64,000 bases of DNA. Origin: an uncultured Planctomycetales bacterium (GTDB lineage: Bacteria > Planctomycetota > MHYJ01 > JACPRB01). Within the stretch, counting starts at the first letter, position 1, and each line of letters opens with the position of its first letter. Location: NCBI GenBank assembly GCA_964526305.1, contig CAZGKV010000012.1, positions 8,131 through 72,130 on the forward strand. Reading direction: 5' to 3'. The notes under the pieces were generated by a model that saw only the letters and a program-made list of their open reading frames with translations, was not told where the DNA came from and ran no database searches. This document shows positions 1,347 to 23,013 of the stretch, piece by piece. The translations under genes were made by a program, and so were the position numbers.

Positions 1347-1347
1347 G

Positions 1348-1917: not shown

Positions 1918-1952
1918 CGCCCGGGTTGTTTCTGAGCCACGGGCGGATTCCC

Positions 1953-2795
1953 CTACCGCGTCCCTGACCCGAGCGTGACCTCGACTGCGAGGCCGAGCAT
2001 CCAGTCCATCTCGAAGGTGTCGGCGCCCTCCGCCGTGGATAACGAAAACGGTACCAGGACGGTCGGCACGATGGCCACCGCAGGGGCGAGACGGACCGGA
2101 ATCGCCACGGAGATCGCATGCAGAAGGTATCCGGAATTGCGGTCGGTCTCGCCCTCCCAATACGCTCGGCCCTGATAGAGGAGGACATATCGAATCCCGA
2201 ACGCCGCTCGGTCTGCCAGCTGAATTCTCGGTCCGATGGAGAAATCGACAACGGTCGATCCTTGGTATTCCTTCCGATTTTCGTAGAGCGGAGCCTGGAT
2301 GCCGAACGAAGTTTCGATTCCAAGCACCCCCGGATAGAGGCCGTAGTCGAGTCGGAAGATCGGATCGAAGGTACCGTTTCCGAACTGGACGTGTTGATGC
2401 TCGATCCCCAGAGCGGCCAGCGCATAGGGGTTGTCTTCGATTTCCCCGGTGGGAAGGGACACGCCTGCGCCAATGCGGAGCCAGTCCTTCTTCAGGACCA
2501 CGTCCGCTTTTCGGAAGTTCAGGAGCAACCTAAAATCCGAAGGTCCTTCGAGAGTCTCGGTGCGATGATGGAGGCGCCCCGTTGGAGAGTCATAGGGGGA
2601 ACCGTCTGGGAGGTGGTACCGAGCGTTCATCGACTTGACGTCGTAGGGAAGACCGATCTCGACATCCCAATCCGGGGTGAAACTCCAATGGAAGCCGAGT
2701 TCCGTCCGGAACCACTCCATCTGGACGACGTGGGCGTGCTCCACGGGATCGTTCGCAGGGTGGCTTCCGTCCATGACCGCCCACTGCTCGCGCAA
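1953..2795 (-). CDS. putative outer-membrane beta-barrel protein; cognate signal peptide (2868-2939) is separated by two in-frame TGA codons
   Basis: Alternating hydrophobic beta-strand pattern with aromatic C-terminal residues. The first in-frame start is a TTG at 2795. Upstream, in the same frame, lies a 24-aa signal-peptide ORF (GTG 2939, VRLFAAVVVAGLVAALAPLAFGQG) followed by TGA-CCT-GCC-TGA. Confidence 0.5.
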   Translation of the reverse strand: MREQWAVMDGSHPANDPVEHAHVVQMEWFRTELGFHWSFTPDWDVEIGLPYDVKSMNARYHLPDGSPYDSPTGRLHHRTETLEGPSDFRLLLNFRKADVVLKKDWLRIGAGVSLPTGEIEDNPYALAALGIEHQHVQFGNGTFDPIFRLDYGLYPGVLGIETSFGIQAPLYENRKEYQGSTVVDFSIGPRIQLADRAAFGIRYVLLYQGRAYWEGETDRNSGYLLHAISVAIPVRLAPAVAIVPTVLVPFSLSTAEGADTFEMDWMLGLAVEVTLGSGTR

Positions 2796-3022
2796 AGAAA
2801 CTCGAAACTTCCCGACCGGACCGGTCGAGCCCTCCCGAGGAAGGGAGGGATTGCTTCAGGCAGGTCATCCCTGTCCGAAGGCGAGGGGGGCCAGGGCGGC
2901 GACCAGCCCCGCTACGACCACAGCGGCGAAGAGCCTCACGCGAAGGTCAACGGGGAGACGAGTCGGGATATTCACCCGAAATTGGCCCCGCTCCCCTCTC
3001 TTCTGCTATCATTCATCCCCCG

Positions 3023-5119: not shown

Positions 5120-6015
5120 GGATCCTGATCCTCTCCCGGCGCAAGCGTCTCTACTCGACTCGTCGGCTGGTCGAGGAGGCGCGCCGGCTCGGACACGAGG
5201 TCGACGTCCTCGATCCGCTCCGCTGCGTCCTCCAGATTTCCACCGGGACCCCTCAGTTGCTCCACGGGACCCGGGAGGTCAAGGGCATGGACGTGGTCAT
5301 TCCCCGGATCAGCACCTTCGCGACGGCCTACCTTCTTGCGGTGGTGCGCCAGCTGGAGTGGCTCGGAGTCCCGTCGGTGAACGATCACGGCTCGATCGCG
5401 CGGGCCCGGAACAAGTTGGGATGCCTCCAACTCCTGGCCAGCCGCGGGGTTCGAGTGCCGGACACGCTCATCTCGCGGTATCCGAGGAACATGGATCGGC
5501 TCCTGGAACGGCTCGGAGGCACGCCGGTCATCCTGAAACTCCTTCGGGGCACGCAAGGCACGGGAGTGATCTTCGCCGAGAGCCAGGCTTCCGTGGAGTC
5601 GATGCTCGAGACGATCTGGAGTCTGGGCGAAGACATCATGCTTCAACGTTTCGTGGCGGAGTCGAAGGGCCGGGACGTCCGGGCCCTGGTGATCGACGGA
5701 AAAGTGCGCTCGTCCATGAGGCGCGTAGCGCGGGAGGGCGAATTTCGCTCGAACATCCATCGGGGCGGGGTGGGAGAGTCGATTCGCTTGCCGAAGGAAT
5801 TCGAGCGAGCCGCGTTGAGCGCGACGGAGGCGGTCGGCTTGAGACTCGCGGGGGTCGACATCCTGGAGTCGTCCGACGGACCGCAGGTGATCGAGGTGAA
5901 CTCGTCGCCCGGGTTTCAGGGCCTCGAGGCCGCGACGGGGGAGAACGTCGCGAGGATGATCGTGGAGTTCGCCGCGAAGACGGCGCGGAAGGCCCGAAGC
6001 GCGGGGAGGCGATGA
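5116..6015 (+). CDS. rimK: RimK-family ATP-grasp alpha-L-glutamate ligase
   Basis: 299 aa: MRILILSRR...YSTRRLVEEA...VIEVNSSPGFQGLE ATP-grasp motifs. ATG 5116 overlaps the GH57 stop (ATGA). Confidence 0.85.
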   Translation: MRILILSRRKRLYSTRRLVEEARRLGHEVDVLDPLRCVLQISTGTPQLLHGTREVKGMDVVIPRISTFATAYLLAVVRQLEWLGVPSVNDHGSIARARNKLGCLQLLASRGVRVPDTLISRYPRNMDRLLERLGGTPVILKLLRGTQGTGVIFAESQASVESMLETIWSLGEDIMLQRFVAESKGRDVRALVIDGKVRSSMRRVAREGEFRSNIHRGGVGESIRLPKEFERAALSATEAVGLRLAGVDILESSDGPQVIEVNSSPGFQGLEAATGENVARMIVEFAAKTARKARSAGRR

Positions 6016-7025
6016 TTCCCGAGCAGCGCGAACACTTCGAGATCGCGGGGATCACGGTCCACGTCGGGACGAAGAAGGACGTTCATCTCAAGATCACCGA
6101 GCTCTTCACCGCGACGCCGGTGTTCATTCCGGTGACGGTCATCCACGGTACCCACTCGGGTCCGACCCTGTTCGTGACGGCGGCCATTCACGGGGACGAG
6201 ATCAACGGGATCGAAATCGTCCGTTCGATTCGGAACGACGTGGATCCCCACCAGCTGCGCGGCACGCTTCTCCTCGTGAGCGTGGCGAATCCGATCGCGT
6301 TCATGACCCAGACTCGAGACCTTCCCGACGGCCGCGATCTGAACCGCTTTTTCCCCGGACGCAAGGAAGGGTCGATGGCCTCCCACATCGCCTCGCACAT
6401 CTTCCGCAAGCTGGTGCGACATGCCAATTGGGGCATCGACCTCCACACGGCGGCGCGGGGGCGGGTAAACCTTCCCCACGTTCGTGCGGACATGCGCGTG
6501 CAAGCCGTACGACGCCTCGCCCACGCCTTCGGCGCGGAGATCATCCTGGACATGGACGGCGACAAGGGCACCCTGAGGTCGGCCGCGACCCGGGTGGGAA
6601 TCCCGACCATCGTCTTCGAAGCGGGAGAGCCGCTCAAGTTTCAGCGATCCCTGATCGAGAAGGGGATCCACGGGGTGCGCAATGCGCTGGCGGAAATCGG
6701 AATGTACTCCTTCCCGAGAGTCTCGCCGCTTTTCCAAATCGTCGTCGACGATCATCGGTGGATCCGGGCCGAGAACGGAGGCATCTTGATCCTCAATGTT
6801 CGCCCCGGTGATATAATTTCAAAAGGAGATGAGATCGCGCTGAACACGAAACCGTTCGGCACCGAGTTGAAGCGACTCCGGGCTCCCTACACCGGACTGG
6901 TGGTCGGCTGCACGACGCTTCCGATGGCGATTCCCGGTTCGGCGGTGTGTCACCTCGTCAAGCTCGATCATCGCGCCGCCCTGCTTAAGAAGCTGCTTCG
7001 GAGGCAGAGATTGGTGTACGAATGA
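6012..7025 (+). CDS. succinylglutamate desuccinylase/aspartoacylase (AstE/AspA) family zinc hydrolase
   Basis: 337 aa with the HGDEINGIE metal-binding motif and a C-terminal beta-domain. ATG overlaps the rimK stop (ATGA). RimK genes are commonly followed by an AstE_AspA-family gene. Confidence 0.8.
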   Translation: MIPEQREHFEIAGITVHVGTKKDVHLKITELFTATPVFIPVTVIHGTHSGPTLFVTAAIHGDEINGIEIVRSIRNDVDPHQLRGTLLLVSVANPIAFMTQTRDLPDGRDLNRFFPGRKEGSMASHIASHIFRKLVRHANWGIDLHTAARGRVNLPHVRADMRVQAVRRLAHAFGAEIILDMDGDKGTLRSAATRVGIPTIVFEAGEPLKFQRSLIEKGIHGVRNALAEIGMYSFPRVSPLFQIVVDDHRWIRAENGGILILNVRPGDIISKGDEIALNTKPFGTELKRLRAPYTGLVVGCTTLPMAIPGSAVCHLVKLDHRAALLKKLLRRQRLVYE

Positions 7026-7681
7026 CTCCGGATGACGTGACGATGGCGGGTCGACTGGGACTCGCGCTCCTGCTGGGCGGGTTCATCGGGTTGGAGCGCG
7101 AAACGCACAGCCAAGCGGCCGGACTCCGGACGCACATGGTGGTCGCCGTCGCGTCCGCGTTGATCATGCTCGTCTCGATGCGGGTTGGAGGAGATACGGG
7201 TCGCGGAGATCCCGGCCGGATCGCGGCCCAGGTGGTCAGCGGCATCGGCTTTCTCGGGGCAGGCGCGATCTTCCGCTATGGAATGACCATCCGCGGCCTT
7301 ACGACCGCCGCCTGTCTGTGGGCGGCCGCGGGCATCGGATTGGCCTGCGGTCTGGGCTATTGGAAGGGCGCGGTGGCCACCACGGGGGGCGTGCTCATCG
7401 CCACGTTCCTCTTCGACAAGGTGGAACGCGCGTTTCTCCGCGAGAGCCAGTACAAGCGGTTCGTGATCAGCTCCAAGGACGGTCCCGATCTCATGCCCCG
7501 CGTCGATTCGGTCCTCGGCAAGCACGGCATCTCGATCAAGCAGCGGGGCCTGCATCAGGACTTCACCAGCAAGACCGTCCAGATCACGCTCACGGCCGCC
7601 GTACCCCAGTCGTGCAACCTGGAGGCTCTGATGCGCGAGCTCGACTCGATCCCCGAAGTCGAGAAGGTGGAAGTCGAATAG
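7022..7681 (+). CDS. mgtC: MgtC/SapB family membrane protein
   Basis: GGFIGLERE and GAGAIFRYG motifs, a 4-TM N-terminal half and an ACT-like C-terminal half. Start overlaps the preceding stop. Confidence 0.8.
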   Translation: MTPDDVTMAGRLGLALLLGGFIGLERETHSQAAGLRTHMVVAVASALIMLVSMRVGGDTGRGDPGRIAAQVVSGIGFLGAGAIFRYGMTIRGLTTAACLWAAAGIGLACGLGYWKGAVATTGGVLIATFLFDKVERAFLRESQYKRFVISSKDGPDLMPRVDSVLGKHGISIKQRGLHQDFTSKTVQITLTAAVPQSCNLEALMRELDSIPEVEKVEVE

Positions 7682-10420: not shown

Positions 10421-10788
10421 AGACCATCGTACTGGGTTCGGTTGTTGTCGGACTTCTGGGACTGATGGCGGAGGAGACCGTCGCTCAGGAAGAAATCCAA
10501 TTCGGGCGCGTCGTGGAGGGGACGCCCGTCTATGTGTACGACATGGGAGACTGGGTTTCGGGACTTCACGGCTACATTCTCCTGCGGAGAGACAATGCGA
10601 CATACGCCACGGTAGTGGTCCTCAAGAGCCAATACAAGCAGATGACACCGGTCTCGGAAACACGTTGGAATCGAATGGCGGCGTTGATGCATCCGGGAAA
10701 CAAGATTCAGTTCTTCGGCCTTGGGATCCATGGCCAGTACGCCGATTTTTACTATGTCGGAGCTCCCACTGACCTAATCCGCTGGTAG
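10417..10788 (+). CDS. small hypothetical secreted protein
   Basis: Strong SD (TTAGGAGGTAATCG-ATG), N-terminal signal peptide, 123 aa. Lower-GC region. A GC hairpin follows at about 10806-10840. Confidence 0.6.
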   Translation: MKTIVLGSVVVGLLGLMAEETVAQEEIQFGRVVEGTPVYVYDMGDWVSGLHGYILLRRDNATYATVVVLKSQYKQMTPVSETRWNRMAALMHPGNKIQFFGLGIHGQYADFYYVGAPTDLIRW

Positions 10789-10910
10789 CGGCAGCACCAG
10801 GGTTCAGCGGGGACTGCACGGTTCCGTTCCGCGCGGTCCCCGCTCTCGCATTTCCTTCATCCCCCTGGGACCTTGTCGTAAACTGTCCGCGCTTTTCAGG
10901 GGGAGGCATC

Positions 10911-12290
10911 ATGGCGAAGCACGGACCCTTCGACGTCGTCGTTGTCGGCAGCGGACCCGCAGGATATGTCGCCGCCATTCGGGCGGGCCAGCTCGGACTC
11001 AAGACGGCCCTCGTCGAAAAGGACGGCAAGTACGGAGGCACGTGCCTCTGGCGGGGATGCATCCCAACGAAGGCCTTTCTGCACGACGCCTATCTCTACG
11101 ACCAGATCAAGAGCGCCTCGAGATACGGGATCGAAGTCGAGAAGGTGAGGGTCAACTGGGAGGGCGTCCTCAAACACAAGAACACGGTCGTCAAGAAGCT
11201 GGGGCTCGGGGTGGAGGGGCTCCTGAAGAAGAACAAGGTGCAATGCTTCGTGGGATTCGGTTCCGTCAAGAAGCCCGGTCTCGTGTCGGTGGGCGACGAC
11301 GAAATCCAGACGAAGAATATCGTCCTGGCTACGGGGTCCGACGTGAAGTGGTTCCCCGGGATGGAGCCCGACGGCAAGGGGATCATCACGAGCAACGAGG
11401 CCCTCGATCTCAAGGCGATCCCGAAGTCGATCGTCGTCATCGGCGCGGGCGCGGTGGGGATCGAATTCGCGTCCGTCTTCCACCGATTCGGCTCCGAAAC
11501 CACCCTGGTCGAGCTCCTGCCGCAAGTCGTCCCGCTGGAGGACGAGGAAATCGCGAGAGAGCTGGAGAGGATTCTGGCGAAGCGCGGGATGCGGATTCTC
11601 ACCGGGACCAAAGTCGAAGCGATCAAGCCGGGATATGAAGTCGTCGTCGCGCGCAACGGGAAATCGGAGACGATCAAGGCGGAAAAGGTGCTCGTTGCCG
11701 TGGGCCGAAAGCCGAATACGGAGAAGATCGGACTCGAGCACACCCGGGTGAAGACTGAACGCGGGTTTGTCAAGGTGAGTCCCGCGATGGAGACCGACGA
11801 GCCGGGGGTCTACGCGATCGGGGACATCGTCCCCACGCCGATGCTCGCGCACGTCGGGAGCGCGGAAGGGATCCTCGCAGTGACGCGCATCGCGGGGAAA
11901 GAGGTCCATCCCATCCTCTACGACCGAGTCCCGAGCGTCACCTACTGCGATCCGCAGGTCGCGAGCGTCGGACTCGGCGAGAAGAAGGCTCGCGAGCGCG
12001 GGTACGACGTCAAGGTGGGAAAGTTCCCCTTCTTGGGAATCGGAAAGGCGTCCATCGAGGGGGAGAACGAGGGGATGGTCAAGGTGGTCGGAGAGAGCAA
12101 GTACGGCGAGATTCTCGGCGTCCACATCCTTCACGCGCATGCGGGCGAGATGATCTCCGAGGCGGTCGCGGTGATGAACGGCGAGCTCACGGCGGAGGAA
12201 CTGGCGCACTCCATCCACCCCCATCCCACGCTCTCGGAGGCGGTCATGGAGGCGGCGCATGCCTATTACGGACAGGCGATCCATATCTGA
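10911..12290 (+). CDS. lpdA: dihydrolipoyl dehydrogenase
   Basis: VVGSGPAGY FAD motif, GGTCLWRGCIPTK redox-active disulfide, HAHP C-terminal motif, 459 aa. SD GGGGGAGG upstream. Confidence 0.92.
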   Translation: MAKHGPFDVVVVGSGPAGYVAAIRAGQLGLKTALVEKDGKYGGTCLWRGCIPTKAFLHDAYLYDQIKSASRYGIEVEKVRVNWEGVLKHKNTVVKKLGLGVEGLLKKNKVQCFVGFGSVKKPGLVSVGDDEIQTKNIVLATGSDVKWFPGMEPDGKGIITSNEALDLKAIPKSIVVIGAGAVGIEFASVFHRFGSETTLVELLPQVVPLEDEEIARELERILAKRGMRILTGTKVEAIKPGYEVVVARNGKSETIKAEKVLVAVGRKPNTEKIGLEHTRVKTERGFVKVSPAMETDEPGVYAIGDIVPTPMLAHVGSAEGILAVTRIAGKEVHPILYDRVPSVTYCDPQVASVGLGEKKARERGYDVKVGKFPFLGIGKASIEGENEGMVKVVGESKYGEILGVHILHAHAGEMISEAVAVMNGELTAEELAHSIHPHPTLSEAVMEAAHAYYGQAIHI

Positions 12291-12354
12291 CTTGGGTACA
12301 ATGTTCGGAGTCGATGAACAGGAGCCTTCACAAAGGAGTCCGGGAGGGCGGCGC

Positions 12355-12711
12355 ATGAAACGCTGGCTCGGACTGCTCGGAGTCTCGGCTTTCCTGGCCG
12401 CGGCGTGGTTCTATCAACCATCGATGCTCCCGAGTACCTGAACGATGAAGGTGGTGACGGGCCTGGGATGCCCGGGATGCGGACTCACGCGATCGGTGAC
12501 CTCGGCGGCGCACGCGAAGCTCGGCGAAGCGTTCCGATACCACATCTTTGGCCCGGCGATTCTCCTCGCGACGGTCGCGGCGTGGTTTGCGTTCTTGATC
12601 GGGCGGAAGGTACCGATCGACCATCCGCGGACCGCGAAGATCCTCCTGGGACTCGTCTTCGTGCTCATGGCCTATTGGATTGTCCGGATTCTCCTGGGAG
12701 CCGTCCCGTGA
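12355..12711 (+). CDS. DUF2752 family membrane protein interrupted by a single in-frame TGA (12439-12441) at the position of the first conserved Cys (Sec candidate or pseudogene)
   Basis: SD GGGAGGG 6 nt before ATG 12355. N-terminal TM helix (MKRWLGLLGVSAFLAAAWF), then ...LPST-TGA-TMKVVTGLGCPGCGLTRS plus two more TM helices. The two ORFs listed at 12259..12441 and 12445..12711 are in the same frame. Confidence 0.55.
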
Positions 12712-13568
12712 GCGAGGTCCAGGTCTCGCGCAAGCCGCCCTGGTTCAAGGTGCGTCTTCCCTCGGGCGAAGGGTATCGGACGACGCTCCAGGTCGCGCGC
12801 CAAAAGCGCCTCCACACGGTGTGCGAAGAGGCGCGGTGTCCCAACATCGCCGAATGCTGGGGGCGAAAGACCGCGACGTTCATGATTCTGGGCGACGTGT
12901 GCACGCGATCGTGCGGTTTCTGCGCCGTCAAAAGCGGAAGGCCGACCGAGCTCGATCTGAACGAGCCGATCCGGACGGCGCGGGCCGTACTGGAACTCGG
13001 GATCCGGCACGCCGTGATCACGAGCGTGAATCGAGACGAACTGGACGACGGCGGAGCGGGGATCTTCGCGGAAACGGTGCGGCAAATCCGCCGGGTCTCG
13101 CCCGGCACGCGGGTCGAGGTTCTCGTTCCCGACTTCCTGGGGAAGCGGGAAGCCCTACAGAAGATGTGGGAGGCGCGACCCGACGTCTTCGGCCACAACA
13201 TCGAGTGTGTCCCGCGCCTTCAGCGTGCCGTCCGAAGCGCCGCGAACTACGAGCGGTCCCTCTCCGTCCTCGAGGAAACGAAGAAGCAGGGGGACATGCT
13301 CGTCAAAACCGGGCTCCAGCTTGGACACGGCGAGTCGTGGGAGGAGATCCTCGCGGTGATGGAAGATCTGGTCCGCATTGGACTCGACATGTTCACGATC
13401 GGTCAGTATCTCCAGCCGACCCGAGAGCACCTTCCCGTCCGGCGGTGGTATACCCCGGCGGAATTCGCCTCGCTCCGCGAAGAGGCGCTTCGACGCGGAA
13501 TCCGATACTGCCAATCGGGTCCGTTGGTTCGAAGCTCCTATCGCGCCGAAGAACCGTTCGAACCGTAA
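12708..13568 (+). CDS. lipA: lipoyl synthase
   Basis: KPPWFKVRLP N-terminus, CEEARCPNIAECW and CTRSCGFC radical-SAM/Fe-S cysteine motifs. GTG 12708 overlaps the DUF2752 stop. Confidence 0.9.
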   Translation: MSEVQVSRKPPWFKVRLPSGEGYRTTLQVARQKRLHTVCEEARCPNIAECWGRKTATFMILGDVCTRSCGFCAVKSGRPTELDLNEPIRTARAVLELGIRHAVITSVNRDELDDGGAGIFAETVRQIRRVSPGTRVEVLVPDFLGKREALQKMWEARPDVFGHNIECVPRLQRAVRSAANYERSLSVLEETKKQGDMLVKTGLQLGHGESWEEILAVMEDLVRIGLDMFTIGQYLQPTREHLPVRRWYTPAEFASLREEALRRGIRYCQSGPLVRSSYRAEEPFEP

Positions 13569-13599
13569 ACGATTCTCCCCTCCGGGTTCTCCGGATTCC

Positions 13600-15327
13600 A
13601 TGGAGAATCTGTCCCTCGTCCGCCTGGTCTGCGCGCGTCGCGCGCGATTCGCCGCGGTCGCCGCGTCCTCCCTCCTCGTAGGCGCCCTGGGATGGGCCAC
13701 GGCCTTTTTCGTGCAGGCGGTGCTGGACCGTATGGGACAGCCACATATTCTATGGTCCGCCGCCGCGACTCTGGCCGTCGTCGCCGTACTCCGTTTCGCG
13801 TTGGCCGTCCTCCGTCAGCGGCTTCAGCTCGGACTGGCCTACGGGGTCGAGGGGGAGCTGTCCGAGGAGTTCCTCCGCCATGTCGGTCGTCTCGAAATGC
13901 GAGCGGTCGAGCAAACCACGCCGGGAGACCTGGTGCGTCGCCTGCGGGGGGTGGACTACCTGCGGACTCTCCTCGAAGACCGCGCGGCGGGGATCGTTTT
14001 CGATGCCTGCCTCGCTCTGGGGGCCCTGCTTCTCCTGATCCTCAGGTCCCCGGCGTGCGTGCCCTTCGTCGTCGTTGGCGCGATGCTCCCCGCTCTCGTT
14101 TCGCTCGTGGCTCGACGGGGGTCCACGGCGTCGTTCCGCGAAATCCAAGAGGCCGATGGGCGATACACCCAGGGAACGATGGAGGCGGTGCGCGGGGTTC
14201 GAGAGGTTCGCCTGCTCGGTGCGGAGGATTGGATGTTGGGGCGCCTCACGAAGGTTCGCACGGCCTGGACGGCGGCTCGACGCCGTCATGTGCTTCGAGC
14301 CGGCACCGCGCAATCCTTGTCCCTCCTTCTCACCACGCTGTCGGGTGGGGCTCTTCTCCTCTTCGGGGCGCTTCGCAGGATGAGTCCCGGAGAGCTGATG
14401 TTCGTTCTCACCCTGGCGGGAATGCTCGTCGCGCCGCTGGAGCAACTCGTTTCGACGGGGGTCGTCTTCTCGGAAGCGCGGGTGGCCCTGACCCGAATCG
14501 AGGAAGTGCTCCGACTTCCCGCGGAACCGCGCCTCCGGGGCTCCGACGTCCCCCGAGGAGGGATCCGTCTCGAAGGAATCGACTTCGCGTATCGGCCGGA
14601 CCGCCCGGTCTTGCGAAACCTGGATCTGGAGATCCCCGAGGGATCCACGGTGGCCATCGTGGGCGAGAGCGGCGCAGGAAAATCGACGCTCCTGGCGCTC
14701 TTGTCGGGGCTGTACGTTCCGGATGCGGGACGGATTCTCGTCGGGGGCACGGACCTTCGCGCCTTGCCCCTCGAGGCGTGGAGGCGCCGAATGGGAGCCG
14801 TCTTTCACGATCCGCGCTTCTTCGAGGGAACGGTGTTGGAGAACCTCCGTCTGGGCTGCGAATCCGCTTCCTTCGAGGACGTACGGAGGGCGGCTCGAAA
14901 GGCGTGCGCCGAGGAATTCATCTTGCAGCATCCCCGGAAGTACGAGGCGCCCCTTCTTCGAGACGGATCCGGATTCTCCGCCGGGCAGCTCCAACGGTTG
15001 GCGTTGGCCCGCGCCTTGGCGCGGGAGCCCGAGTTGCTGCTTCTCGACGAGGCGACGAACAATCTCGACGCCCGAACGGAGGCGGGGGTGCTCGGAGCGC
15101 TTGCGGAGGGGCGGACGCGAAGGACGACCGTCTTCGTCTCGCATCGACTGGCGAGCACGGTGCGCGCGGACCGGATCGTCGTCCTTCACGAAGGACGCGT
15201 GGCCGAGTCGGGGACGATTCGCGATCTCCTGGAGCGGGACGGTCTCTACCGCCGCCTCTGGCACCGTCAGCTTCCCGTAAACGAATCGATCGGGAGGGTT
15301 CTCTCGATCCCGGAGGTACGACGATGA
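13600..15327 (+). CDS. ABC transporter, fused permease/ATPase (lasso-peptide exporter, D protein, McjD-like)
   Basis: Six-TM N-terminal domain, Walker A GESGAGKST, signature FSAGQLQRLALARAL, Walker B LLLLDEATNNLD. Stop overlaps the start of the lasso B gene. Confidence 0.85.
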   Translation: MENLSLVRLVCARRARFAAVAASSLLVGALGWATAFFVQAVLDRMGQPHILWSAAATLAVVAVLRFALAVLRQRLQLGLAYGVEGELSEEFLRHVGRLEMRAVEQTTPGDLVRRLRGVDYLRTLLEDRAAGIVFDACLALGALLLLILRSPACVPFVVVGAMLPALVSLVARRGSTASFREIQEADGRYTQGTMEAVRGVREVRLLGAEDWMLGRLTKVRTAWTAARRRHVLRAGTAQSLSLLLTTLSGGALLLFGALRRMSPGELMFVLTLAGMLVAPLEQLVSTGVVFSEARVALTRIEEVLRLPAEPRLRGSDVPRGGIRLEGIDFAYRPDRPVLRNLDLEIPEGSTVAIVGESGAGKSTLLALLSGLYVPDAGRILVGGTDLRALPLEAWRRRMGAVFHDPRFFEGTVLENLRLGCESASFEDVRRAARKACAEEFILQHPRKYEAPLLRDGSGFSAGQLQRLALARALAREPELLLLDEATNNLDARTEAGVLGALAEGRTRRTTVFVSHRLASTVRADRIVVLHEGRVAESGTIRDLLERDGLYRRLWHRQLPVNESIGRVLSIPEVRR

Positions 15328-16019
15328 CACACGTGGCCGAACACGTCCGGTGGCGGAAGATCGACGGCGCCGTCGTGATTCTGGATCTCCGATCCGAGAA
15401 GTACTTCGTCCTAGACGCGATCGGCACGGCAATCTGGGAAGGGATCGCCGAGGGGGTCGACTCCCAGGCCGAGATCTCCGCGCTGGCGACTCGATACGGC
15501 GTATCCCGAGAGCGCGTGGCGGAGGACGTTCGAGTCTTCGTGGATCGGGCCAAGGTGCAAGGACTCCTCGCGACTCGGCCGGCCGAGCCGCCGCCTCGGC
15601 TCCGTGCCGGCGCGAGAGAGGGGCGCCCCGCGTGTCCGACGCTTCGCGCGTGGTGGAGCCTCCTGGCGACGGCGCACCATCTCGCCCGTCACGGCTTTGC
15701 GGCGACGTACGGCGCGTACGAAGCGCTACCGGTGCCCGACGCCGCTGCGGACGTCGACGAGCGCCTCGCGGAGGCCGTCGCCGCCTTCGCCAAGGCCGAG
15801 AATGTTTTCCACATGAAGCGCGCGCCCGAGGACTGCGTCCCCCGATCGCTCGCCCTCTTCCGTTTCCTGCGTTCGGTGGGGATTCCCGTCGAGCATTGCA
15901 TCGGCGTTCGCCGCTTTCCGTTCGGGGCGCATGCTTGGGTGGAGTTCCGCGGCGAGATCGTCCACGACAGCCTTTCGACGACCACGAACTATGGGACCCT
16001 GGCGCGAATCGGGGTTTGA
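15324..16019 (+). CDS. lasso peptide biosynthesis B protein, fused B1 (PqqD-like RRE) and B2 (transglutaminase-like Cys protease)
   Basis: N-terminal PqqD-like region (WRKIDGAVVILDLRSEKYFVLDAIGTAIWEGI). C-terminal region with catalytic Cys (EDCVPRSLALFRFL) and the HAWVEF His motif typical of McjB-like leader peptidases. SD GGAGGT upstream. Confidence 0.85.
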   Translation: MTHVAEHVRWRKIDGAVVILDLRSEKYFVLDAIGTAIWEGIAEGVDSQAEISALATRYGVSRERVAEDVRVFVDRAKVQGLLATRPAEPPPRLRAGAREGRPACPTLRAWWSLLATAHHLARHGFAATYGAYEALPVPDAAADVDERLAEAVAAFAKAENVFHMKRAPEDCVPRSLALFRFLRSVGIPVEHCIGVRRFPFGAHAWVEFRGEIVHDSLSTTTNYGTLARIGV

Positions 16020-16048
16020 AGGCTTTTCTTACTTACGGGAGGAATGCC

Positions 16049-16195
16049 ATGACCGAAGAGTATCGCACACCCGAGATCGTGAACATGGGCGAGGTGACGG
16101 AACTGACGGGGGGCGGAAGCACGCCTCTCGCGGACATCCCGGGCGATCCGACGGGCGGATATAACCGCGGGAAACTCGAGGTGGAACTCGACTGA
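16049..16195 (+). CDS. lasso peptide precursor (A peptide), 48 aa
   Basis: MTEEYRTPEIVNMGEVTELTGGGSTPLADIPGDPTGGYNRGKLEVELD. Leader fits YxxPx(L/I)xxxGxxxxxTxG with Thr at -2. Predicted core GGSTPLADIPGDPTGGYNRGKLEVELD, with Gly1 and Asp8 as ring partners. SD GGGAGGA upstream. Confidence 0.8.
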   Translation: MTEEYRTPEIVNMGEVTELTGGGSTPLADIPGDPTGGYNRGKLEVELD

Positions 16196-16202
16196 CGGAT
16201 GT

Positions 16203-16233
16203 GGGGGAAGGGGCCCTCAGGGTCCTTTCCCCC
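16203..16233 (+). terminator. strong GC hairpin (14-bp stem incl. 2 G-U pairs, 3-nt loop) immediately after the lasso precursor gene; candidate partial terminator/attenuator
   Basis: GGGGGAAGGGGCCC-tca-GGGTCCTTTCCCCC, beginning 8 nt after the precursor stop. No U-tract. Confidence 0.5.
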
Positions 16234-16249
16234 TCCGGGGGAGATCGTC

Positions 16250-17968
16250 ATGAAAAGATTCTTCGGCCGCCTGCCTGCGTCGGAAACGGGATCTTCGGGT
16301 CCTTGCGTTTCGCACCGGGGGACCATCGCCAACCGAGAGGCGCTTCTCGAGGAGGCACGGCGTCGCGGAGAACCGATCGGGGAGGTGGGGGATGGCGATC
16401 TCCTTCTCCGGGCCTACCGGTGGTGGGGGGACGGATTGCAGGCTCGCGTTCTCGGAGAATACGCCGTGGCGATCGTGGACGAGCGAGCCGGCAGGGCCTT
16501 TCTTACTCACGACGGACTCGGCGTGATGCCGCTCTTCTACGGCCGGCACGGGGACGATTTCCTCTTCGGCTCGCATCTCGAAGATCTCGTCGCGCTTACG
16601 GGCGTCGGGGAACTCGACGAGGAATACCTCGCGGACGTCCTCTCCCTCGGAGTTCACTTGGGGGAGCGTACTCCCTATCGCCATCTCCGCCAGCTCCTCC
16701 CGGGCACCAGTCTGCGGTGGGAGGGGGGGCGCGTGTTCGTGCGGAAGACCTGGGATCTCTCCTCCGTGCGGTCGATCGAAGGGATTTCCGACGAGGAGTG
16801 CGAGGAGCGCTTGCGCTCCCTCCTGCGCGAAGGAGTGACGGCGGCTCTTCGGGCCGATGGACCGGTTTGGAGCGAGCTCTCCGGCGGCCTCGACTCCTCG
16901 TCCATCGTGTGCACCGCGGCGCACGCGGGCACGCGGCTGGACACCCTCTCCTTTACCACTCGCTCGCGCACGGCGGACGAGCAGAAATGGATTCGGGCGG
17001 TGGTGGAGAGATACGACCTTCCGTGGCACTCGATCGATTTCGACCGGTGTCCGCCGTTCTCCGAGATGCCGGACCGTTTCTTCGCGGTACCGAGCTCGGT
17101 CCTTTCCGTCGCCGGGCTTTATCGGAAGTACGAGGAGCTGCTTTCGGGGCACGGAGTGCAGGTCCTTCTGACGGGAACCGGAGGCGATCAGGTCTTCTGC
17201 GGAGATTACCCCGCTCCGGACCACCTGGCGGATCAGCTCTCTCTCGGTCGTATGCATCGGCTGATTCGAGGCGTACGCTCGTGGAGCGAAGGAAGCGACG
17301 AAAAGCGATCGTTCCTCCATGTCCTCCTGCGGGGCGCGATCCAACCCCGCCTGGATCATGCGCTGGATCGAAATCTCCGGAAGCGGGAACGCCCGGGCGT
17401 CCCGCCTTGGCTCCGCGCGGACTACGCGGGACGGATGATGCTGGAGGATCGAAGCCGGCGGAGAGTCGCTCCCCGGTGCCGGTCCGTGGGACAGCAGGGA
17501 CTCCTGGAACGCCTCTGGCCGGCGCATCTCGTGGCTACGGGACGGGCTCACTACGTCCGAGGCTTCGAGTTTCGGTACCCGCTGCTCTACCGCCCCCTCG
17601 TCGAGTTCCTGTTCGCGCTCCCGCACGATCGGAAGGCGGGACCGGACGAAGACCGGAGCCTCCAGCGTCGCGCGCTTCGCGGGATTCTTCCGGAGACGGT
17701 CCGGACACGGAGGGGGAAGATGGGCCCTCAACGCCTATATCACGACGGCTTGGCGAAGAGTCGGGAGTGGCTCGAGGCGCTGACCGACCGGCCGAGGGTC
17801 GTCGAGCGCGGATACGTGGACGCGGAGCGATGGCGCGAAGCCGTGGCCCGGATGCGGCACGGCGCGACGCACGGTCTTCCGCTCTTCCTCGGGACGGCGA
17901 CGCTCGAGGTGTGGCTCCGGGGCTTGGAGTCGGCGCCCGTTTTCGTTGACACTCCCTCCGCGAGGTGA
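16250..17968 (+). CDS. lasso peptide cyclase (asparagine synthetase B-like, C protein)
   Basis: SGGLDSS PP-loop motif and AsnB-like fold, 572 aa, immediately downstream of the precursor. Confidence 0.85.
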   Translation: MKRFFGRLPASETGSSGPCVSHRGTIANREALLEEARRRGEPIGEVGDGDLLLRAYRWWGDGLQARVLGEYAVAIVDERAGRAFLTHDGLGVMPLFYGRHGDDFLFGSHLEDLVALTGVGELDEEYLADVLSLGVHLGERTPYRHLRQLLPGTSLRWEGGRVFVRKTWDLSSVRSIEGISDEECEERLRSLLREGVTAALRADGPVWSELSGGLDSSSIVCTAAHAGTRLDTLSFTTRSRTADEQKWIRAVVERYDLPWHSIDFDRCPPFSEMPDRFFAVPSSVLSVAGLYRKYEELLSGHGVQVLLTGTGGDQVFCGDYPAPDHLADQLSLGRMHRLIRGVRSWSEGSDEKRSFLHVLLRGAIQPRLDHALDRNLRKRERPGVPPWLRADYAGRMMLEDRSRRRVAPRCRSVGQQGLLERLWPAHLVATGRAHYVRGFEFRYPLLYRPLVEFLFALPHDRKAGPDEDRSLQRRALRGILPETVRTRRGKMGPQRLYHDGLAKSREWLEALTDRPRVVERGYVDAERWREAVARMRHGATHGLPLFLGTATLEVWLRGLESAPVFVDTPSAR

Positions 17969-17984
17969 GAAACTCCCCGTCCGA

Positions 17985-18533
17985 ATGATTCCCTTCGTGC
18001 CGCGCGAGATGTTCCTCACCAAGGGCGTCGGAAGGCACAAGGAGAAACTCGCCAGTTTCGAAGAGGCGCTTCGCAACGCTCAGATCGCGCGGTTCAATCT
18101 CGTCCACGTCTCCAGCATCTTTCCCCCGCACTGCAAGCTTCTCTCCCCGAACAAGGGGCTTCGCAAGCTGCAAAGCGGCCAGGTCGTCGCGGTCGTCATG
18201 GCTCGGTCGGAGACCAACGAGAAGAATCGGCTGATCGCGACGTCCATCGGAGTCGCGATTCCTTCGAACAAGGACCAGTACGGCTACCTCTCCGAACACC
18301 ACAGTTTCGGCGAGACCGAGGAACAAGCGGGGGAGTACGCGGAGGACCTGGCGGCCTCGATGCTGGCCACCATCCTCGGGCTCGACTACGAGCACGGAGC
18401 GACTTGGGATCAGCGCGAGCAGCAGTGGAAGATGAGCGGACAGATCGTCAAGACGATGAACATCACCCAATCGGCGATCGGGACGGCGGGGCTGTGGACG
18501 ACGACGATCGCCTCGGCCGTTCTCATTCCCTAG
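17985..18533 (+). CDS. pdaD: pyruvoyl-dependent arginine decarboxylase
   Basis: MIPFVPREMFLTKGVG N-terminus and a Ser-containing self-cleavage region, about 180 aa. Confidence 0.8.
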   Translation: MIPFVPREMFLTKGVGRHKEKLASFEEALRNAQIARFNLVHVSSIFPPHCKLLSPNKGLRKLQSGQVVAVVMARSETNEKNRLIATSIGVAIPSNKDQYGYLSEHHSFGETEEQAGEYAEDLAASMLATILGLDYEHGATWDQREQQWKMSGQIVKTMNITQSAIGTAGLWTTTIASAVLIP

Positions 18534-18536
18534 GGC

Positions 18537-19580
18537 ATGAAACAGAAGAACTCGCATCCGTTCACGCAGCATCCCGTCGTGCCGCTGGTTCCGGGTCGGA
18601 TGACGGCGGCCGAATATCTCCGCGCCTGTGCAGACCTTTCCTTCCAGGCGCGAAGCCTCGGGACCGCGTTCGAGATCTGGCAGAAGGCGCTGCAGGACGA
18701 TACGACCATCTTCCTCGGACTCTCGGGTGCGATGACGCCCGCGGGGCTGAGGAAGGTGATCGTCCACCTCCTCGAGAATCGACTGATCGACGTCCTGGTG
18801 ACGACGGGAGCCAACGTCTTTCACGATCTCCACGAGACCTTGGGCAAGCATCACTACAAATGCCACCCGGCGACGGACGACAAGCTGCTCCGCCGGCACT
18901 ACTTGGATCGGATCTACGACGTTCTCGGGAACGAGAAGGAATACGGCCAACTCGATCGGCTGATCTCGAAGGTGGCGGCCTCGCTCCCCAAGCGTCCCTA
19001 CTCTACGCGCGAATGGTTTCACGAGTTCGGCGCGGTGCTGAATTCGATGAAGAAGGACCAGGGGATCGTCACGGCCGCCTACGAGGCGGGCGTGCCGATT
19101 TACGCCCCCGCCCTCGGGGATTCGTCCTACGGCATCGGCATGGCCGCGTACAAAGAGTCTCGGGACTTCCTGCTCCATCCGATCAAGGACGTGCGCGAGA
19201 CCGCCGAGATCGCGGCGGAGGCTCCGCGAACCGGGATCGTGTTCATCGGCGGGGGGACGCCCAAGAACTTCACGCAGCAAACCGAAGTGACGGCGGAGTA
19301 CATGGGCTACGAGATGCAGGGACACAAGTACTGCATCCAGATCACCACCGACGCCCCCCACTGGGGAGGATTGTCGGGCTGTACCTTCGAGGAGTCCACC
19401 TCGTGGGGCAAGATCCACTTCGAGGCCGAGAAGATCGCCGTCTACTCCGATGCGACGATTTCGCTCCCGCTCCTGGCGTGCGGCCTCGCGGAGGTCCGCG
19501 CCCACCGGTTCCGACCCTCGCGTCCCAAGTTCACGTTCGGCGAGGAACTTCGGATCACGCGCGAGAAGCTCCGCAACTAG
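18537..19580 (+). CDS. deoxyhypusine synthase-like protein (homospermidine/polyamine biosynthesis)
   Basis: DHS-family motifs (GLSGAMTPAGLRK, VTTGANVFHD, GGGTPKNF), 347 aa. Confidence 0.8.
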   Translation: MKQKNSHPFTQHPVVPLVPGRMTAAEYLRACADLSFQARSLGTAFEIWQKALQDDTTIFLGLSGAMTPAGLRKVIVHLLENRLIDVLVTTGANVFHDLHETLGKHHYKCHPATDDKLLRRHYLDRIYDVLGNEKEYGQLDRLISKVAASLPKRPYSTREWFHEFGAVLNSMKKDQGIVTAAYEAGVPIYAPALGDSSYGIGMAAYKESRDFLLHPIKDVRETAEIAAEAPRTGIVFIGGGTPKNFTQQTEVTAEYMGYEMQGHKYCIQITTDAPHWGGLSGCTFEESTSWGKIHFEAEKIAVYSDATISLPLLACGLAEVRAHRFRPSRPKFTFGEELRITREKLRN

Positions 19581-19582
19581 CG

Positions 19583-20443
19583 ATGGAAGGCCGATGGCAC
19601 TTCCTCGGCATCCCGCGGGACTACGCCCGATACGAAACCGCCCGATTCGTGGTCGTGCCGGCGCCTTGGGATCGGGCGGGGTCCGGGACACGGTACGGCC
19701 CGAGCGCCATCCTCGAGGCGTCGCATCAGATCGGGCGCTTCGACGAGGAACTCGGATTCGAGCCGTGGAAGGCCGGAATCCACACTCTTCCTCCCGCGGC
19801 GACGGCTCGCGATCCGGAGGGAACGCTGAGTCGGCTCGCAGACCTCGTGGAAAAAGAGGTGCGGGCGGGCAAGTTTCCGATCGTGCTCGGGGGGGATCGC
19901 CTTCTGACGGAGGGATCTCTCGCGGGAGTGGCCCGAGTCCATGCGAAGATCTCGGTGCTGCACCTGGACGCGCACGGCCGATCGGACGGTGGAAAGGGAA
20001 TGTCCGCGATCGCGGAGAGAATCGTCCAGGTGGGAGTCCGGACGGTCGCCGAGCCGTGTACTCCCTCCAAACGGATTCAGACATGGCTCGTGCGCCAGGA
20101 ACGGGACGTTCGCGCGCTGGTTCCCAAGATGCTCGAAGGATTGGGGGAGATGGTGTATCTCTCCCTGAATCTCCACGCGTTGGATCCCTCCATCGTGCCG
20201 GGGGTACGCGTCCCCGTGCCGGGAGGCTTGGGATGGTGGGACGCGTTGGAGATTCTCCGCGCCGTGACGCAGGCCAGAAACGTCGTGGCGGCGGACGTGG
20301 TCGAGCTTTGCCCGCTTCCCGACTCCGTCGTGAGCGAGTTCGCGGCGGCGCAGTTGGTCTATCGGCTGATGGGGTATGTCGTGCACAAGGACACTCAAAA
20401 GTCCACGGTCCGGCGAGTTGTCCGCTCGAGGGGGAAGCGGTGA
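19583..20443 (+). CDS. speB: agmatinase / arginase-family ureohydrolase
   Basis: Arginase-fold Mn-binding motifs (LGGDRL, LHLDAHGRSD, SLNLHALDPS). Confidence 0.8.
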   Translation: MEGRWHFLGIPRDYARYETARFVVVPAPWDRAGSGTRYGPSAILEASHQIGRFDEELGFEPWKAGIHTLPPAATARDPEGTLSRLADLVEKEVRAGKFPIVLGGDRLLTEGSLAGVARVHAKISVLHLDAHGRSDGGKGMSAIAERIVQVGVRTVAEPCTPSKRIQTWLVRQERDVRALVPKMLEGLGEMVYLSLNLHALDPSIVPGVRVPVPGGLGWWDALEILRAVTQARNVVAADVVELCPLPDSVVSEFAAAQLVYRLMGYVVHKDTQKSTVRRVVRSRGKR

Positions 20444-21240
20444 GCGTCCGAAGCCCCGCCGCCGCCGGTACGTTTTATCCGAGCCGGGCCGAGGAACTGC
20501 GCGCGGAGATGGCCCGGTGTCTGCCCGCCGGGGAACGCGCTGCGGCACTGGCGGCCATCGTGCCCCATGCCGGTTATCGATACTCCGGTCGCGTGGCCGG
20601 CGAGGTGTTCGCCCGAATCGAGATTCCCCGTGACGTCGTGATTCTCGCCTTCCACCATCGCGGGCGCGGAGCGGACGTGGCCGTTTCCTCCAGCCACGAG
20701 TGGCTCACGCCGCTCGGGAGATCGCCCGTGAACGAAGGCTTGGCCCGTCGCATCGTCGAAACGTGCCCGGGAGCGAGCTTCGACGATGAGGGACATCGGG
20801 AGGAGCATTCTGCCGAAGTGCAGCTCCCCTTCTTGCAGTTCCTCCGGAGCGACGTTCGGATCGTCCCGGTGGCGTTGAGCCTTGGACTGGAAGAGGAACG
20901 AAGACTGGCAGATTTCGGCCGCGCGCTCGCCGGCGTTCTGGACGATGAGCTCGTGATCGGATCGACGGATCTCAACCATTACGAGAATCACGAGCGGACG
21001 CTGGAAAAGGACCGCAAGGTCATCGATCCCATGGAGCGCCTCGACGGGACGGAATTGGCGCGGGCGATCGAGGCCCATCGCGTCTCGATGTGCGGATTCG
21101 CGCCGGCGATCGCGACGCTGGCGTTCGCCCGAGCGAAGGGCGCGACGAAGGCGGAAACCGTGGCGCACCGAACCAGCGGCGACGCCTCCGGGGATTTTCA
21201 GCGATGCGTGGGGTACGTGGGGATGATTATTCGTCGGTGA
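20440..21240 (+). CDS. Memo-like protein (AmmeMemoRadiSam system protein B family)
   Basis: AAGTFYP N-terminal motif, His-rich metal site (HAGYRYSG), about 266 aa. GTG overlaps the speB stop. Confidence 0.75.
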   Translation: MSVRSPAAAGTFYPSRAEELRAEMARCLPAGERAAALAAIVPHAGYRYSGRVAGEVFARIEIPRDVVILAFHHRGRGADVAVSSSHEWLTPLGRSPVNEGLARRIVETCPGASFDDEGHREEHSAEVQLPFLQFLRSDVRIVPVALSLGLEEERRLADFGRALAGVLDDELVIGSTDLNHYENHERTLEKDRKVIDPMERLDGTELARAIEAHRVSMCGFAPAIATLAFARAKGATKAETVAHRTSGDASGDFQRCVGYVGMIIRR

Positions 21241-21243
21241 AAA

Positions 21244-23013
21244 ATGTGGAAGCTGAAGCGGACGCACACGTGCGGTGAACTCCGGGCCGAGCAATCGGGG
21301 CAAGAGGTGATCTTGGACGGCTGGGTCGACGCCCGCCGGAATTTCGGCAACTTGCTTTTCATCGATCTGCGGGACCGCTACGGCAAGACGCAGATCCTCT
21401 TCAGTCCCGACCGGGATCCCGCCCTCCTGGAGCACGCCTCTCGAGTCGGGAAGGAATGGGTGATCGCCGTGCGCGGCGTCGTGCGACGGCGCGACGCGGA
21501 CACCGTGAATTCCAAGATCCCCACGGGGGAGATCGAAGTGGACGCCCTCGAACTCGAGATCGTCAACGAAGCGAAGACGACGCCGTTCGAAATCTCGGAA
21601 CGGATCACCGTCTCCGAAGAGATGCGGCTCCAGCATCGCTATCTCGATCTGCGCCGGCCGTGGATGCAGCGCAACATCATCGTGCGGAGCAAGATCGTCC
21701 ATGCGATCCGCCACTACATGGACGGCCAGGGATTCCTCGACATCGAGACTCCCTACATGGTGAAGTTCACCCCCGGAGGGGCGCGGAATTTTCTCTGTCC
21801 CAGCCGTCTCTATCCGGGTCGGTTCTTTGCCATGGCCGAATCGCCGCAGATCTTCAAGCAGCTCTTCATGGTGAGCGGCATGGACAAGTACTACCAGATC
21901 GCGCGCTGTTTCCGCGACGAGGACCTCCGGGCGGATCGCCAGCTCGAATTCACCCAACTCGATCTCGAGATGTCCTTCGTTCAGCCCGAGGACGTGATGG
22001 GCGTGATCGAAGGATGCGTCGTGGAGGTGTGGAAAAAGGTGGCGGGGGTCGAGGTTCCCCGGCCGTTTCCGCTCATCAGCTACGAAGAGTCGATGCGGCT
22101 CTACGGCACCGACAAGCCGGACCTTCGCTTCGAGCTGAGGATTTGGGACGCGTCGGAGGCGGTCCGCGCGAGCGGATTCAAGGTCTTTGCGGGGACGGTC
22201 GCCGCGGGGGGCGTCGTACGCGGACTCACCGCTCCGGGTTGCGGCTCGTGGTCGCGGAAGCAGGTCGAGGAGCTGGAGAGCTACGTCAAAGGGATCGGCG
22301 CCATGGGACTGGTGAGCCTCAAGGTCGAAGGAGGAAAGCTGGCGGGAGGGAGCGCAAAATTCCTCGGAGATCCGGAAGTCCGGGGAATCCTGGGAGTCTC
22401 CGGGGCCAAAGACGGAGATCTCTTGCTGCTCATTGCGGATGAAAGGGACAAGGCGGCCACGATCCTCGGCGGATTGCGACTGCTCCTGCGGGACCGCCTC
22501 TCGCTCGTGAAATCGAACGCCTTCCAATTCTGTTGGGTCGTGGACTTCCCGATGTTCGAGATCGGGGAGGACGGGAGCGTCGGCGCGAAGCACCACCCGT
22601 TCACCTCGCCGAAGGACGAGTTCCTCGACCTTCTCGAAAAGGAGCCGATGAAGGTCAAGGCGAAGGCGTACGACCTCGTGCTCAATGGCGTGGAGCTGGG
22701 GGGCGGTTCCATCCGGATTCATCGGCGCGACGTCCAGCAACGGATTTTCAAGCTCCTAGGGCTCTCGGAGGAATACGCGCGCGACCGTTTCGGCTTTCTC
22801 CTGGAGGCGTTCGAGTACGGCGCTCCTCCCCACGGCGGGATTGCGCTGGGGTTGGACCGACTGGCGATGCTCGTCCTGGGTCTCGACAACATCCGCGACG
22901 TGATTACGTTTCCCAAGACCCAATCGACGGTGTGCCTGATGACGGGGGCGCCGGGGAGCGTGACGGAGAAGCAGCTCAAGGAACTCCACATCCGAGTGGT
23001 GGATCTCCCATGA
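21244..23013 (+). CDS. aspS: aspartyl-tRNA synthetase
   Basis: Class II aaRS motifs (FRDEDLRADRQLEFTQLD, GGGSIRIH, ALGLDRL) and an OB-fold N-terminus, 589 aa. Confidence 0.92.
   Translation: MWKLKRTHTCGELRAEQSGQEVILDGWVDARRNFGNLLFIDLRDRYGKTQILFSPDRDPALLEHASRVGKEWVIAVRGVVRRRDADTVNSKIPTGEIEVDALELEIVNEAKTTPFEISERITVSEEMRLQHRYLDLRRPWMQRNIIVRSKIVHAIRHYMDGQGFLDIETPYMVKFTPGGARNFLCPSRLYPGRFFAMAESPQIFKQLFMVSGMDKYYQIARCFRDEDLRADRQLEFTQLDLEMSFVQPEDVMGVIEGCVVEVWKKVAGVEVPRPFPLISYEESMRLYGTDKPDLRFELRIWDASEAVRASGFKVFAGTVAAGGVVRGLTAPGCGSWSRKQVEELESYVKGIGAMGLVSLKVEGGKLAGGSAKFLGDPEVRGILGVSGAKDGDLLLLIADERDKAATILGGLRLLLRDRLSLVKSNAFQFCWVVDFPMFEIGEDGSVGAKHHPFTSPKDEFLDLLEKEPMKVKAKAYDLVLNGVELGGGSIRIHRRDVQQRIFKLLGLSEEYARDRFGFLLEAFEYGAPPHGGIALGLDRLAMLVLGLDNIRDVITFPKTQSTVCLMTGAPGSVTEKQLKELHIRVVDLP

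Follow-up and report, generated by a model that had tools for sequence, protein, structure and literature searches.

The region between lipA and pdaD in the 64-kb stretch of DNA analysed here (hereafter, the window) raises the question of whether its four genes encode a complete lasso-peptide pathway and, if so, what that pathway would make. Lasso peptides are small, ribosomally made peptides with a knotted shape. As predicted from the genes, positions 13600-17968 very probably form a canonical, self-contained class II lasso-peptide cluster, inserted downstream of lipA, which has its stop at 13568, and upstream of pdaD, which starts at 17985. The preliminary description of this DNA had proposed a complete class II cluster in the order D-B-A-C; indeed, all four genes were present, co-directional on the + strand, and with the same outer coordinates. 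The core of the product is uncharacterised and new, and the machinery and mechanism are textbook. The features of the cluster, with predicted functions, were as follows:

13600-15327, + strand: lasD, ATP-binding cassette (ABC) exporter half-transporter, with a transmembrane domain (TMD) and a nucleotide-binding domain (NBD), 575 aa, no peptidase domain
15312-15316, + strand: Shine-Dalgarno site GGAGG of B, within the 3' end of D, read from the sequence, 7 nt before the ATG at 15324
15324-16019, + strand: lasB, recognition element of ribosomally synthesised and post-translationally modified peptides (RiPP recognition element, RRE) fused to a Cys protease, 231 aa, PqqD and Transglut_core3
16037-16042, + strand: Shine-Dalgarno site GGGAGG of A, read from the sequence, 6 nt before the ATG at 16049
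16049-16111, + strand: leader part of precursor A, 21 aa, MTEEYRTPEIVNMGEVTELTG, from leader motif residues and family alignment
16112-16195, + strand: core part of precursor A, 27 aa, GGSTPLADIPGDPTGGYNRGKLEVELD, plus stop, from family alignment; Asp8 codon at 16133-16135
16203-16233, + strand: GC-rich hairpin in the A-C spacer, from RNA folding
16250-17968, + strand: lasC, ATP-dependent lasso cyclase, AsnB homologue, 572 aa, Asn_synthase and GATase_7

The four open reading frames (ORFs) were intact, and their sequence was identical in three other independent metagenome assemblies (ENA, JGI, and Logan), on whose contigs, bearing the identical precursor, products of 575, 231, 48, and 572 aa were called independently. 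The stop codon of D and the start codon of B overlap as ATGA (15324-15327), whereas B and A are separated by 29 nt and A and C by 54 nt; the translational coupling proposed earlier for the whole set thus holds for D and B, and not for the other two junctions. The gap between lipA and D is 31 nt. Shine-Dalgarno sites were found before B, A, and C, the last of these being GGGGGAG.

The precursor, MTEEYRTPEIVNMGEVTELTG followed by GGSTPLADIPGDPTGGYNRGKLEVELD (48 aa), is divided into leader and core by taking G22 as residue +1. This places Tyr(-17), Pro(-14), Ile(-12), and Thr(-2), corresponding to residues Y5, P8, I10, and T20, together with Gly(-8), in the leader. Lasso leaders are characterised by a YxxPxL motif at -17 to -12 and a Thr at -2 (PMC10368454), and the register of the window leader equals this published spacing. 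The core starts with GGSTPLAD, in which Gly1 is followed by Asp8, the sole acidic residue at positions 7-9. Since none of the 27 core residues is a Cys, the product is assigned to class II, as had been proposed. A regular expression combining the leader with Gly1 and an Asp or Glu at positions 7-9 matched only once in the six frames of the window, at this ORF; as this single match lies between B and C, behind a GGGAGG site, the precursor is more than a chance ORF. From the sequence, the product is predicted to be a 27-residue anionic lasso peptide with a Gly1-Asp8 ring. The dehydrated core has a monoisotopic mass of 2709.3245 Da and a net charge of about -3, for a linear core of 2727.34 Da. 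In a text search of the open-access literature, neither this core nor close variants of it were found in any paper.

To identify relatives of the precursor, we searched 1.84 billion representative proteins exhaustively with HMMER, which yielded five true relatives with E-values from 2e-8 to 3e-4: P0223 (locus L088), P0225 (L160/L161), P0226, P0227 (L162/L163), and P0228. All are metagenomic and uncharacterised, and they share 38-54% identity with the window precursor over its whole length; identities were 44-58% for B and 42% for C. Two of the eight hits, P0224 (421 aa) and P0229 (414 aa), were unrelated repeat proteins by sequence and were discarded. The exhaustive search was needed, as a word-indexed search with the 48-aa precursor retrieved only the precursor itself. 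A scan of metagenome contigs with a two-precursor alignment gave no confirmed locus, and a second scan, with close B homologues as the query, gave only relatives at 45% identity or less. The preliminary description had allowed for a precursor with no homologues at all; those found here share both the genomic context and the leader/core register, and their alignment supports the 48-aa precursor and the cleavage site that it had predicted.

In the six-member alignment, Y(-17), P(-14), T(-2), G1, T4, A7, P10, G11, G16, and Y17 were invariant and position 8 was either D or E, giving the core motif GxxTP[LV]A[DE]xPGxPxGGY. By sequence alone, the G21-G23 run of the window precursor allows three start points, such that Gly21 or Gly23 could serve as residue 1, with a 9- or 7-membered ring closed on the same Asp. 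The final product could also differ through trimming of the tail or tailoring by distant enzymes, and the C-terminal tails of the family, which are unlike that of the window and vary in length (8 to more than 20 residues) and in charge (acidic to Lys-rich), are compatible with a dispensable or processed tail. However, four of the five relatives carry a residue other than Gly at -1, which in the alignment leaves G22 of the GGG run as the only choice for residue 1. Moreover, the Y(-17)/P(-14)/[ILV](-12)/T(-2) spacing fits only this register, and no tailoring gene (kinase, methyltransferase, isopeptidase, or P450) is adjacent to the cluster. A different register or product is, in our view, improbable, and the Gly1-Asp8 assignment is retained below.

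The B protein had been described as a fused B1/B2 protein, with a PqqD-like RRE joined to a transglutaminase-like Cys protease containing HAWVEF, and this architecture was recovered in full. Pfam searches identified PqqD (50.6 bits, for a cutoff of 23.4) and Transglut_core3 (67.3 bits), and the NCBIfam model NF033537 (lasso_biosyn_B2) was matched with 65.2 bits, above its cutoff of 33. The leader-binding RRE spans approximately residues 1-85 and the Cys protease, which contains AHAWVEF, approximately residues 107-231. The AlphaFold (AF2) model of B showed high confidence (predicted local distance difference test 91.8; predicted template-modelling (TM) score 0.86), which was lower in the linker of about 20 residues between the two domains. 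By sequence, the N-terminal domain matched TbiB1 (5v1u; E 5e-8, 32% identity over about 85 residues); by Foldseek, its model matched both TbiB1 and TfuB1 (TM score normalised to the target, 0.85-0.89), whose structures were both solved with a lasso leader bound. The structural matches of the C-terminal domain were weak and corresponded to transglutaminase-like Cys proteases (3isr, LapG), with no lasso B2-type protease structure among them. The putative catalytic residues are Cys171 (codon 15834-15836), His203 (15930-15932), and Asp215 (15966-15968). The lack of such a Cys/His/Asp triad had been considered as a possible objection to the cluster; when 39 fused-B homologues were aligned, Cys171 and His203 proved invariant, and Asp215 was at least 90% conserved.

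The C protein matched Asn_synthase over its full length (147 bits, E 1.3e-42) as well as GATase_7 (62 bits), and its sequence matches in the PDB were TsnB9, AsnB, and beta-lactam synthetase. The AsnB fold, on which the earlier assignment of an AsnB-like cyclase depended, is therefore well supported, and the SGGLDS motif of the PP-loop was located at residue 211 of the 572-aa form (16880-16897). The N-terminus, MKRF..., has no Cys after Met1, i.e., it lacks the glutaminase Cys nucleophile. A start at the ATG at 16199, given in the preliminary description, lies inside the hairpin and was not used by the gene callers. We favour the ATG at 16250 as the most likely start, because it is preceded by the GGGGGAG site, was chosen by the gene callers, and yields the MKRF N-terminus common to the homologue in L161.

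The D protein matched ABC_membrane (73 bits, residues 23-280) and ABC_tran (112 bits, residues 338-487). The Walker A and B motifs and the FSAGQ signature reported earlier were all located (GESGAGKS, LLLLDE, and FSAGQ), together with the H-loop VSHR. The consensus of the ABC signature is LSGGQ; FSAGQ retains its S, G, and Q, and because the nearest D homologue has FSSGQ, this signature is a lineage variant that keeps Ser, Gly, and Gln. The best NCBIfam models for D were exporters of the HlyB and NHLP-bacteriocin types, with every score under its cutoff. Among sequence matches in the PDB were ABCB1, PCAT1, and HlyB, and D aligned with the latter two solely downstream of their peptidase domains. 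McjD was absent from the 60 PDB matches listed, and no pairwise comparison between D and McjD was made. As its ATPase motifs are intact and it lacks a C39 peptidase domain, D fits the TMD-NBD half-transporter expected within such a cluster, and its sequence predicts an export and self-immunity pump.

A mechanism can be proposed for the cluster, with steps taken from the established lasso pathway and with the sequence features as the only part observed here. The 48-aa precursor would be translated, and its leader would be bound by the PqqD-type RRE domain of B via Tyr(-17), Pro(-14), and Ile(-12). The domain carrying Cys171, His203, and Asp215 would then cleave after Gly(-1), guided by Thr(-2), thereby freeing the amine of Gly1. 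Using ATP at its PP-loop SGGLDS, C would adenylate the side chain of Asp8 and join Asp8 to Gly1, resulting in an 8-residue macrolactam ring with the C-terminal tail threaded through it. A plug formed by Tyr17, Asn18, and Arg19 would leave about 8 residues in the loop and about 8-10 in the acidic tail. Finally, D would export the product and probably protect the producer.

Several observations weigh against this interpretation. The precursor matched the NCBIfam model NF033521 (lasso_leader_L3) with 17.3 bits (E 0.0036; residues 5-23 aligned with positions 1-19 of 20), a near miss of the 19-bit cutoff; being this close, it resembles the family and is formally not a member. Similarly, the best NCBIfam match of C, and the sole lasso-cyclase model matched, was NF033535, the 'exception' model of the lasso isopeptide bond-forming cyclase, with a score far below the cutoff (222.3 versus 525 bits). 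The asparagine synthase model TIGR01536 was also matched under its cutoff (176 versus 267 bits), and as NF033535 outscores it, C is classed as a lasso-type cyclase outside that narrow subfamily. The identification of Tyr17, with Asn18 and Arg19, as the likely candidate for the steric plug is a guess from sequence. Moreover, no sigma-70-like promoter was detected in 10500-21500 with a scan that may not suit this phylum, and the 31 nt between lipA and D leave too little room for a promoter; the cluster may therefore rely on read-through from upstream genes for its expression. Terminator signals in the same interval were only at the chance level expected from shuffled sequences.

The hairpin between A and C belongs with these points, as it has no U tract and is missing in two of the three relatives with an A-C junction, leaving its role uncertain. 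In the microcin C operon, a terminator follows mccA (PMC4231749), which offers an analogue. The window hairpin consists of a 14-bp GC-rich stem with a 3-nt loop, extendable to 16196-16237, and its RNA fold has an energy of -36.7 kcal/mol (z = -2.4). A comparable 13-bp hairpin was found in the A-C spacer of L161, unlike L162/L163, where C begins right after A and no hairpin is present. Inverted repeats occur in other lasso clusters, and by analogy with these and with the mccA terminator, the hairpin is read as a possible attenuator or stabiliser, which might raise the ratio of precursor to enzyme transcripts or stabilise the message of A.

To determine in which host and at what kind of site the cluster lies, we compared the flanking genes with those of related contigs. 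The best matches of AspS (21244-23013) were proteins from Planctomycetes/Planctomycetota metagenome-assembled genomes (MAGs), with 81%, 74%, and 73% identity; matches to Planctomycetota MAGs spanned 81-58% identity, whereas Bacillota appeared only at about 55%, which indicates that the host belongs to the Planctomycetota. Upstream of the cluster lie lpdA, DUF2752, and lipA, the same genes as previously listed, and downstream lie pdaD, a deoxyhypusine-synthase homologue, an arginase-family gene, and aspS. The surrounding synteny was kept in L157, L158, and L159, with orthologues at 71-86% identity (76-86% for lipA and pdaD). In L159, pdaD directly follows lipA (junction at 7530-7545). The lipA-pdaD junction of L158 is occupied by a class-I tRNA synthetase gene on the opposite strand (6114-7121), while L157 carries, before pdaD, a fatty-acid/polyketide-like gene set comprising FabA, ketosynthase, ketoreductase, and acyl carrier protein genes (1-6531). 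Since lipA and pdaD are adjacent in L159 and the junction is filled otherwise in L157 and L158, the lasso cluster is a lineage-specific insertion at a variable junction, within an otherwise conserved array of housekeeping genes.

A clear insertion scar was seen neither in composition nor in flanking repeats. The GC content of the cluster was 64-70%, compared with 58-67% for the flanks; the GC content at third codon positions of D and C (0.76-0.77) was within the range of the window, so composition is not diagnostic of transfer. As a candidate scar, we considered a 15-nt perfect direct repeat, CGAAGAGGCGCTTCG, at 13478-13492 and 18059-18073 (spacing of 4581 nt); it is probably a coincidence, because one copy falls within lipA and the other within pdaD, in conserved coding sequence, and the same peptide, EEALR, is encoded by both. 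Scanning the complete window against Rfam gave no match, and no tRNAs were present in the window.

These observations bear on the possibility that the cluster is genuine but cryptic or inactive, i.e., that an acquired island is either left untranscribed or yields no product under natural conditions. The lack of promoter-like sites and of terminators above shuffle expectation in 10500-21500 is consistent with this, as is the absence of the insertion from the nearest relatives; moreover, an in-frame TGA in the DUF2752 gene, two genes upstream, could hint at local decay. The cluster nevertheless retains four intact ORFs, conserved catalytic residues, and good Shine-Dalgarno sites, its sequence is identical in independent assemblies, and its genes are co-directional with short gaps, embedded in a housekeeping array that is necessarily transcribed. 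We consider a silent cluster unlikely.

Beyond the precursor family, the fused-B homologues place the cluster in a broader context. Homologues formed 94 clusters in the protein collection (best identity of 58%), and 498 stretches were confirmed in species-representative genomes of Pseudomonadota, Gemmatimonadota, Eremiobacterota/Vulcanimicrobiota, Acidobacteriota, Actinomycetota, including Mycobacterium, and others. In most of these loci, B and C were adjacent and a small ORF bearing the motif either preceded B or followed C; the T(-2)x/G1...D8 pattern was repeated in many of the candidate precursors, across many phyla. Within the precursor family, the order B-A-C was found wherever the context was recoverable (L088 and L160-L163), as well as in L012 and L015 outside it. 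Only the window and L088 carry D upstream of B in this family; in the fused-B clade, D immediately precedes B in L005, L011, L087, and L088 and also lies on the upstream side of B in L101 and L111. The earlier view that an exporter-first order is less common was thus not borne out within this clade.

An alternative reading is that no lasso pathway exists here: C would be an AsnB-family amidotransferase that lies beside the transglutaminase-like protein and the ABC transporter by chance or for another pathway, and the small ORF would be spurious. This reading could draw on the scores of C and the precursor below the curated cutoffs of lasso-specific NCBIfam models and on the many spurious ORFs of high-GC DNA, but is effectively refuted by the conserved context. 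The score of B exceeds the cutoff of the lasso B2 model, and the RRE of B matches structures of lasso B1 proteins. In dozens of loci from different phyla, B is next to C and a small ORF with the motif accompanies them, and the small ORF of the window has homologues at E-values of about 2e-8 in the same context.

We then compared the class II cluster with known lasso systems. Microcin J25 (mcjABCD, Escherichia coli) and capistruin (capABCD) are encoded by clusters of the proteobacterial type with a single fused B. Like these, the window encodes a precursor, a fused B that combines leader recognition with a Cys-His-Asp protease, an AsnB-like cyclase, and a dedicated ABC half-transporter that lacks a peptidase domain and is about 575-580 aa long, and its predicted product is likewise of class II, with an 8-residue ring from Gly1 to an acidic residue. 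The spacings in the triad of B (32 residues from Cys to His and 12 from His to Asp) equal those of McjB, whose triad we take to be C150/H182/D194. In contrast to mcjABCD, with its A / B-C-D arrangement, the window genes follow the order D-B-A-C in one operon-like array. Other differences from mcjABCD and capABCD are the N-terminal domain of B, which is clearly PqqD/RRE by Pfam, the unrelated 27-aa core with its acidic tail, and the Planctomycetota host. The leader motif YxxPx[LI] at -17 to -12 is shared with the TbiB1/TbiA system of Thermobaculum terrenum (5v1u/5v1v) and the TfuB1/fusilassin-fuscanodin system of Thermobifida fusca (6jx3), which, unlike the window, have split B1 and B2 proteins rather than an RRE fused to the protease.

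To our knowledge, almost no RiPPs have been characterised from Planctomycetota. Our search of open-access text found bioinformatic mentions only and no characterised lasso peptide from Planctomycetes/Planctomycetota. Lasso families are usually restricted to one phylum (PMC12070363). The precursor family is rare and the phylum under-explored, and the six-member family, with a constant ring and loop and variable tails, might tentatively represent a new lasso scaffold with an unseen target or ecological role, or provide the first characterised Planctomycetota lasso peptide, although we regard this as doubtful. The conservation of the ring and loop beside hypervariable tails suggests that the ring-loop face carries the function. 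The cluster is mechanistically unsurprising and leaves the understanding of lasso biosynthesis unchanged. It is, at 4.4 kb, a compact, self-contained expression target with its own exporter, for which the cleavage site, ring, and mass are predicted. Moreover, its clean presence or absence at the lipA-pdaD junction offers a small, well-documented case in which a RiPP cluster has moved as one block.

Some further observations were made in the related loci and in the flanks of the cluster. Six loci (L026-L030 and L034) from Mycobacterium/Mycolicibacter, with L026 from an uncultured Actinomycetota MAG, share a conserved lasso cluster in the order B-C-A, with very similar cores (GSGNYLSDSSTGYGYMGWY..DTPDT.APLP); in L028-L030 and L034, an ABC transporter is convergent to this cluster. 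In other fused-B clusters, two precursor genes with divergent cores were observed downstream of C (L093-L095, 7493-7985, and L014, 8971-10263).

In the window, a 37-nt imperfect direct repeat (13563-13599 and 15275-15311, 70% identity), the copies of which share CCGTAAACGA and GGGTTCTC, lies just upstream of the starts of D and B. Downstream of the cluster, 17985-20443 (+ strand) contains a polyamine-type module, composed of a pyruvoyl-dependent arginine decarboxylase, the deoxyhypusine-synthase homologue, and the agmatinase-like arginase-family gene, and followed by a Memo-like gene and aspS; this module was kept in L157-L159. On the other side, lplB and the E1/E2 2-oxoacid dehydrogenase genes separate DUF2752 from lipA in L158 and L159; the window has none of these genes there.

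Finally, the DUF2752 gene (12355-12711, + strand) is split by an in-frame TGA at 12439-12441, which was also found in two independent assemblies (L001 and L002). L158 and L159 carry intact orthologues of 122 aa, with which the readthrough translation of the window gene aligns end to end; the TGA coincides exactly with the conserved first Cys (TGC) of their C-x9-CPxCG motif. The downstream sequence showed no distinctive fold resembling a selenocysteine insertion sequence (z = +0.9), orthologues with the Cys codon folded at least as well, and no selenocysteine tRNA was present in the window. This TGA could be one side of a selenocysteine/Cys pair, or a nonsense mutation with a restart at the ATG at 12445.

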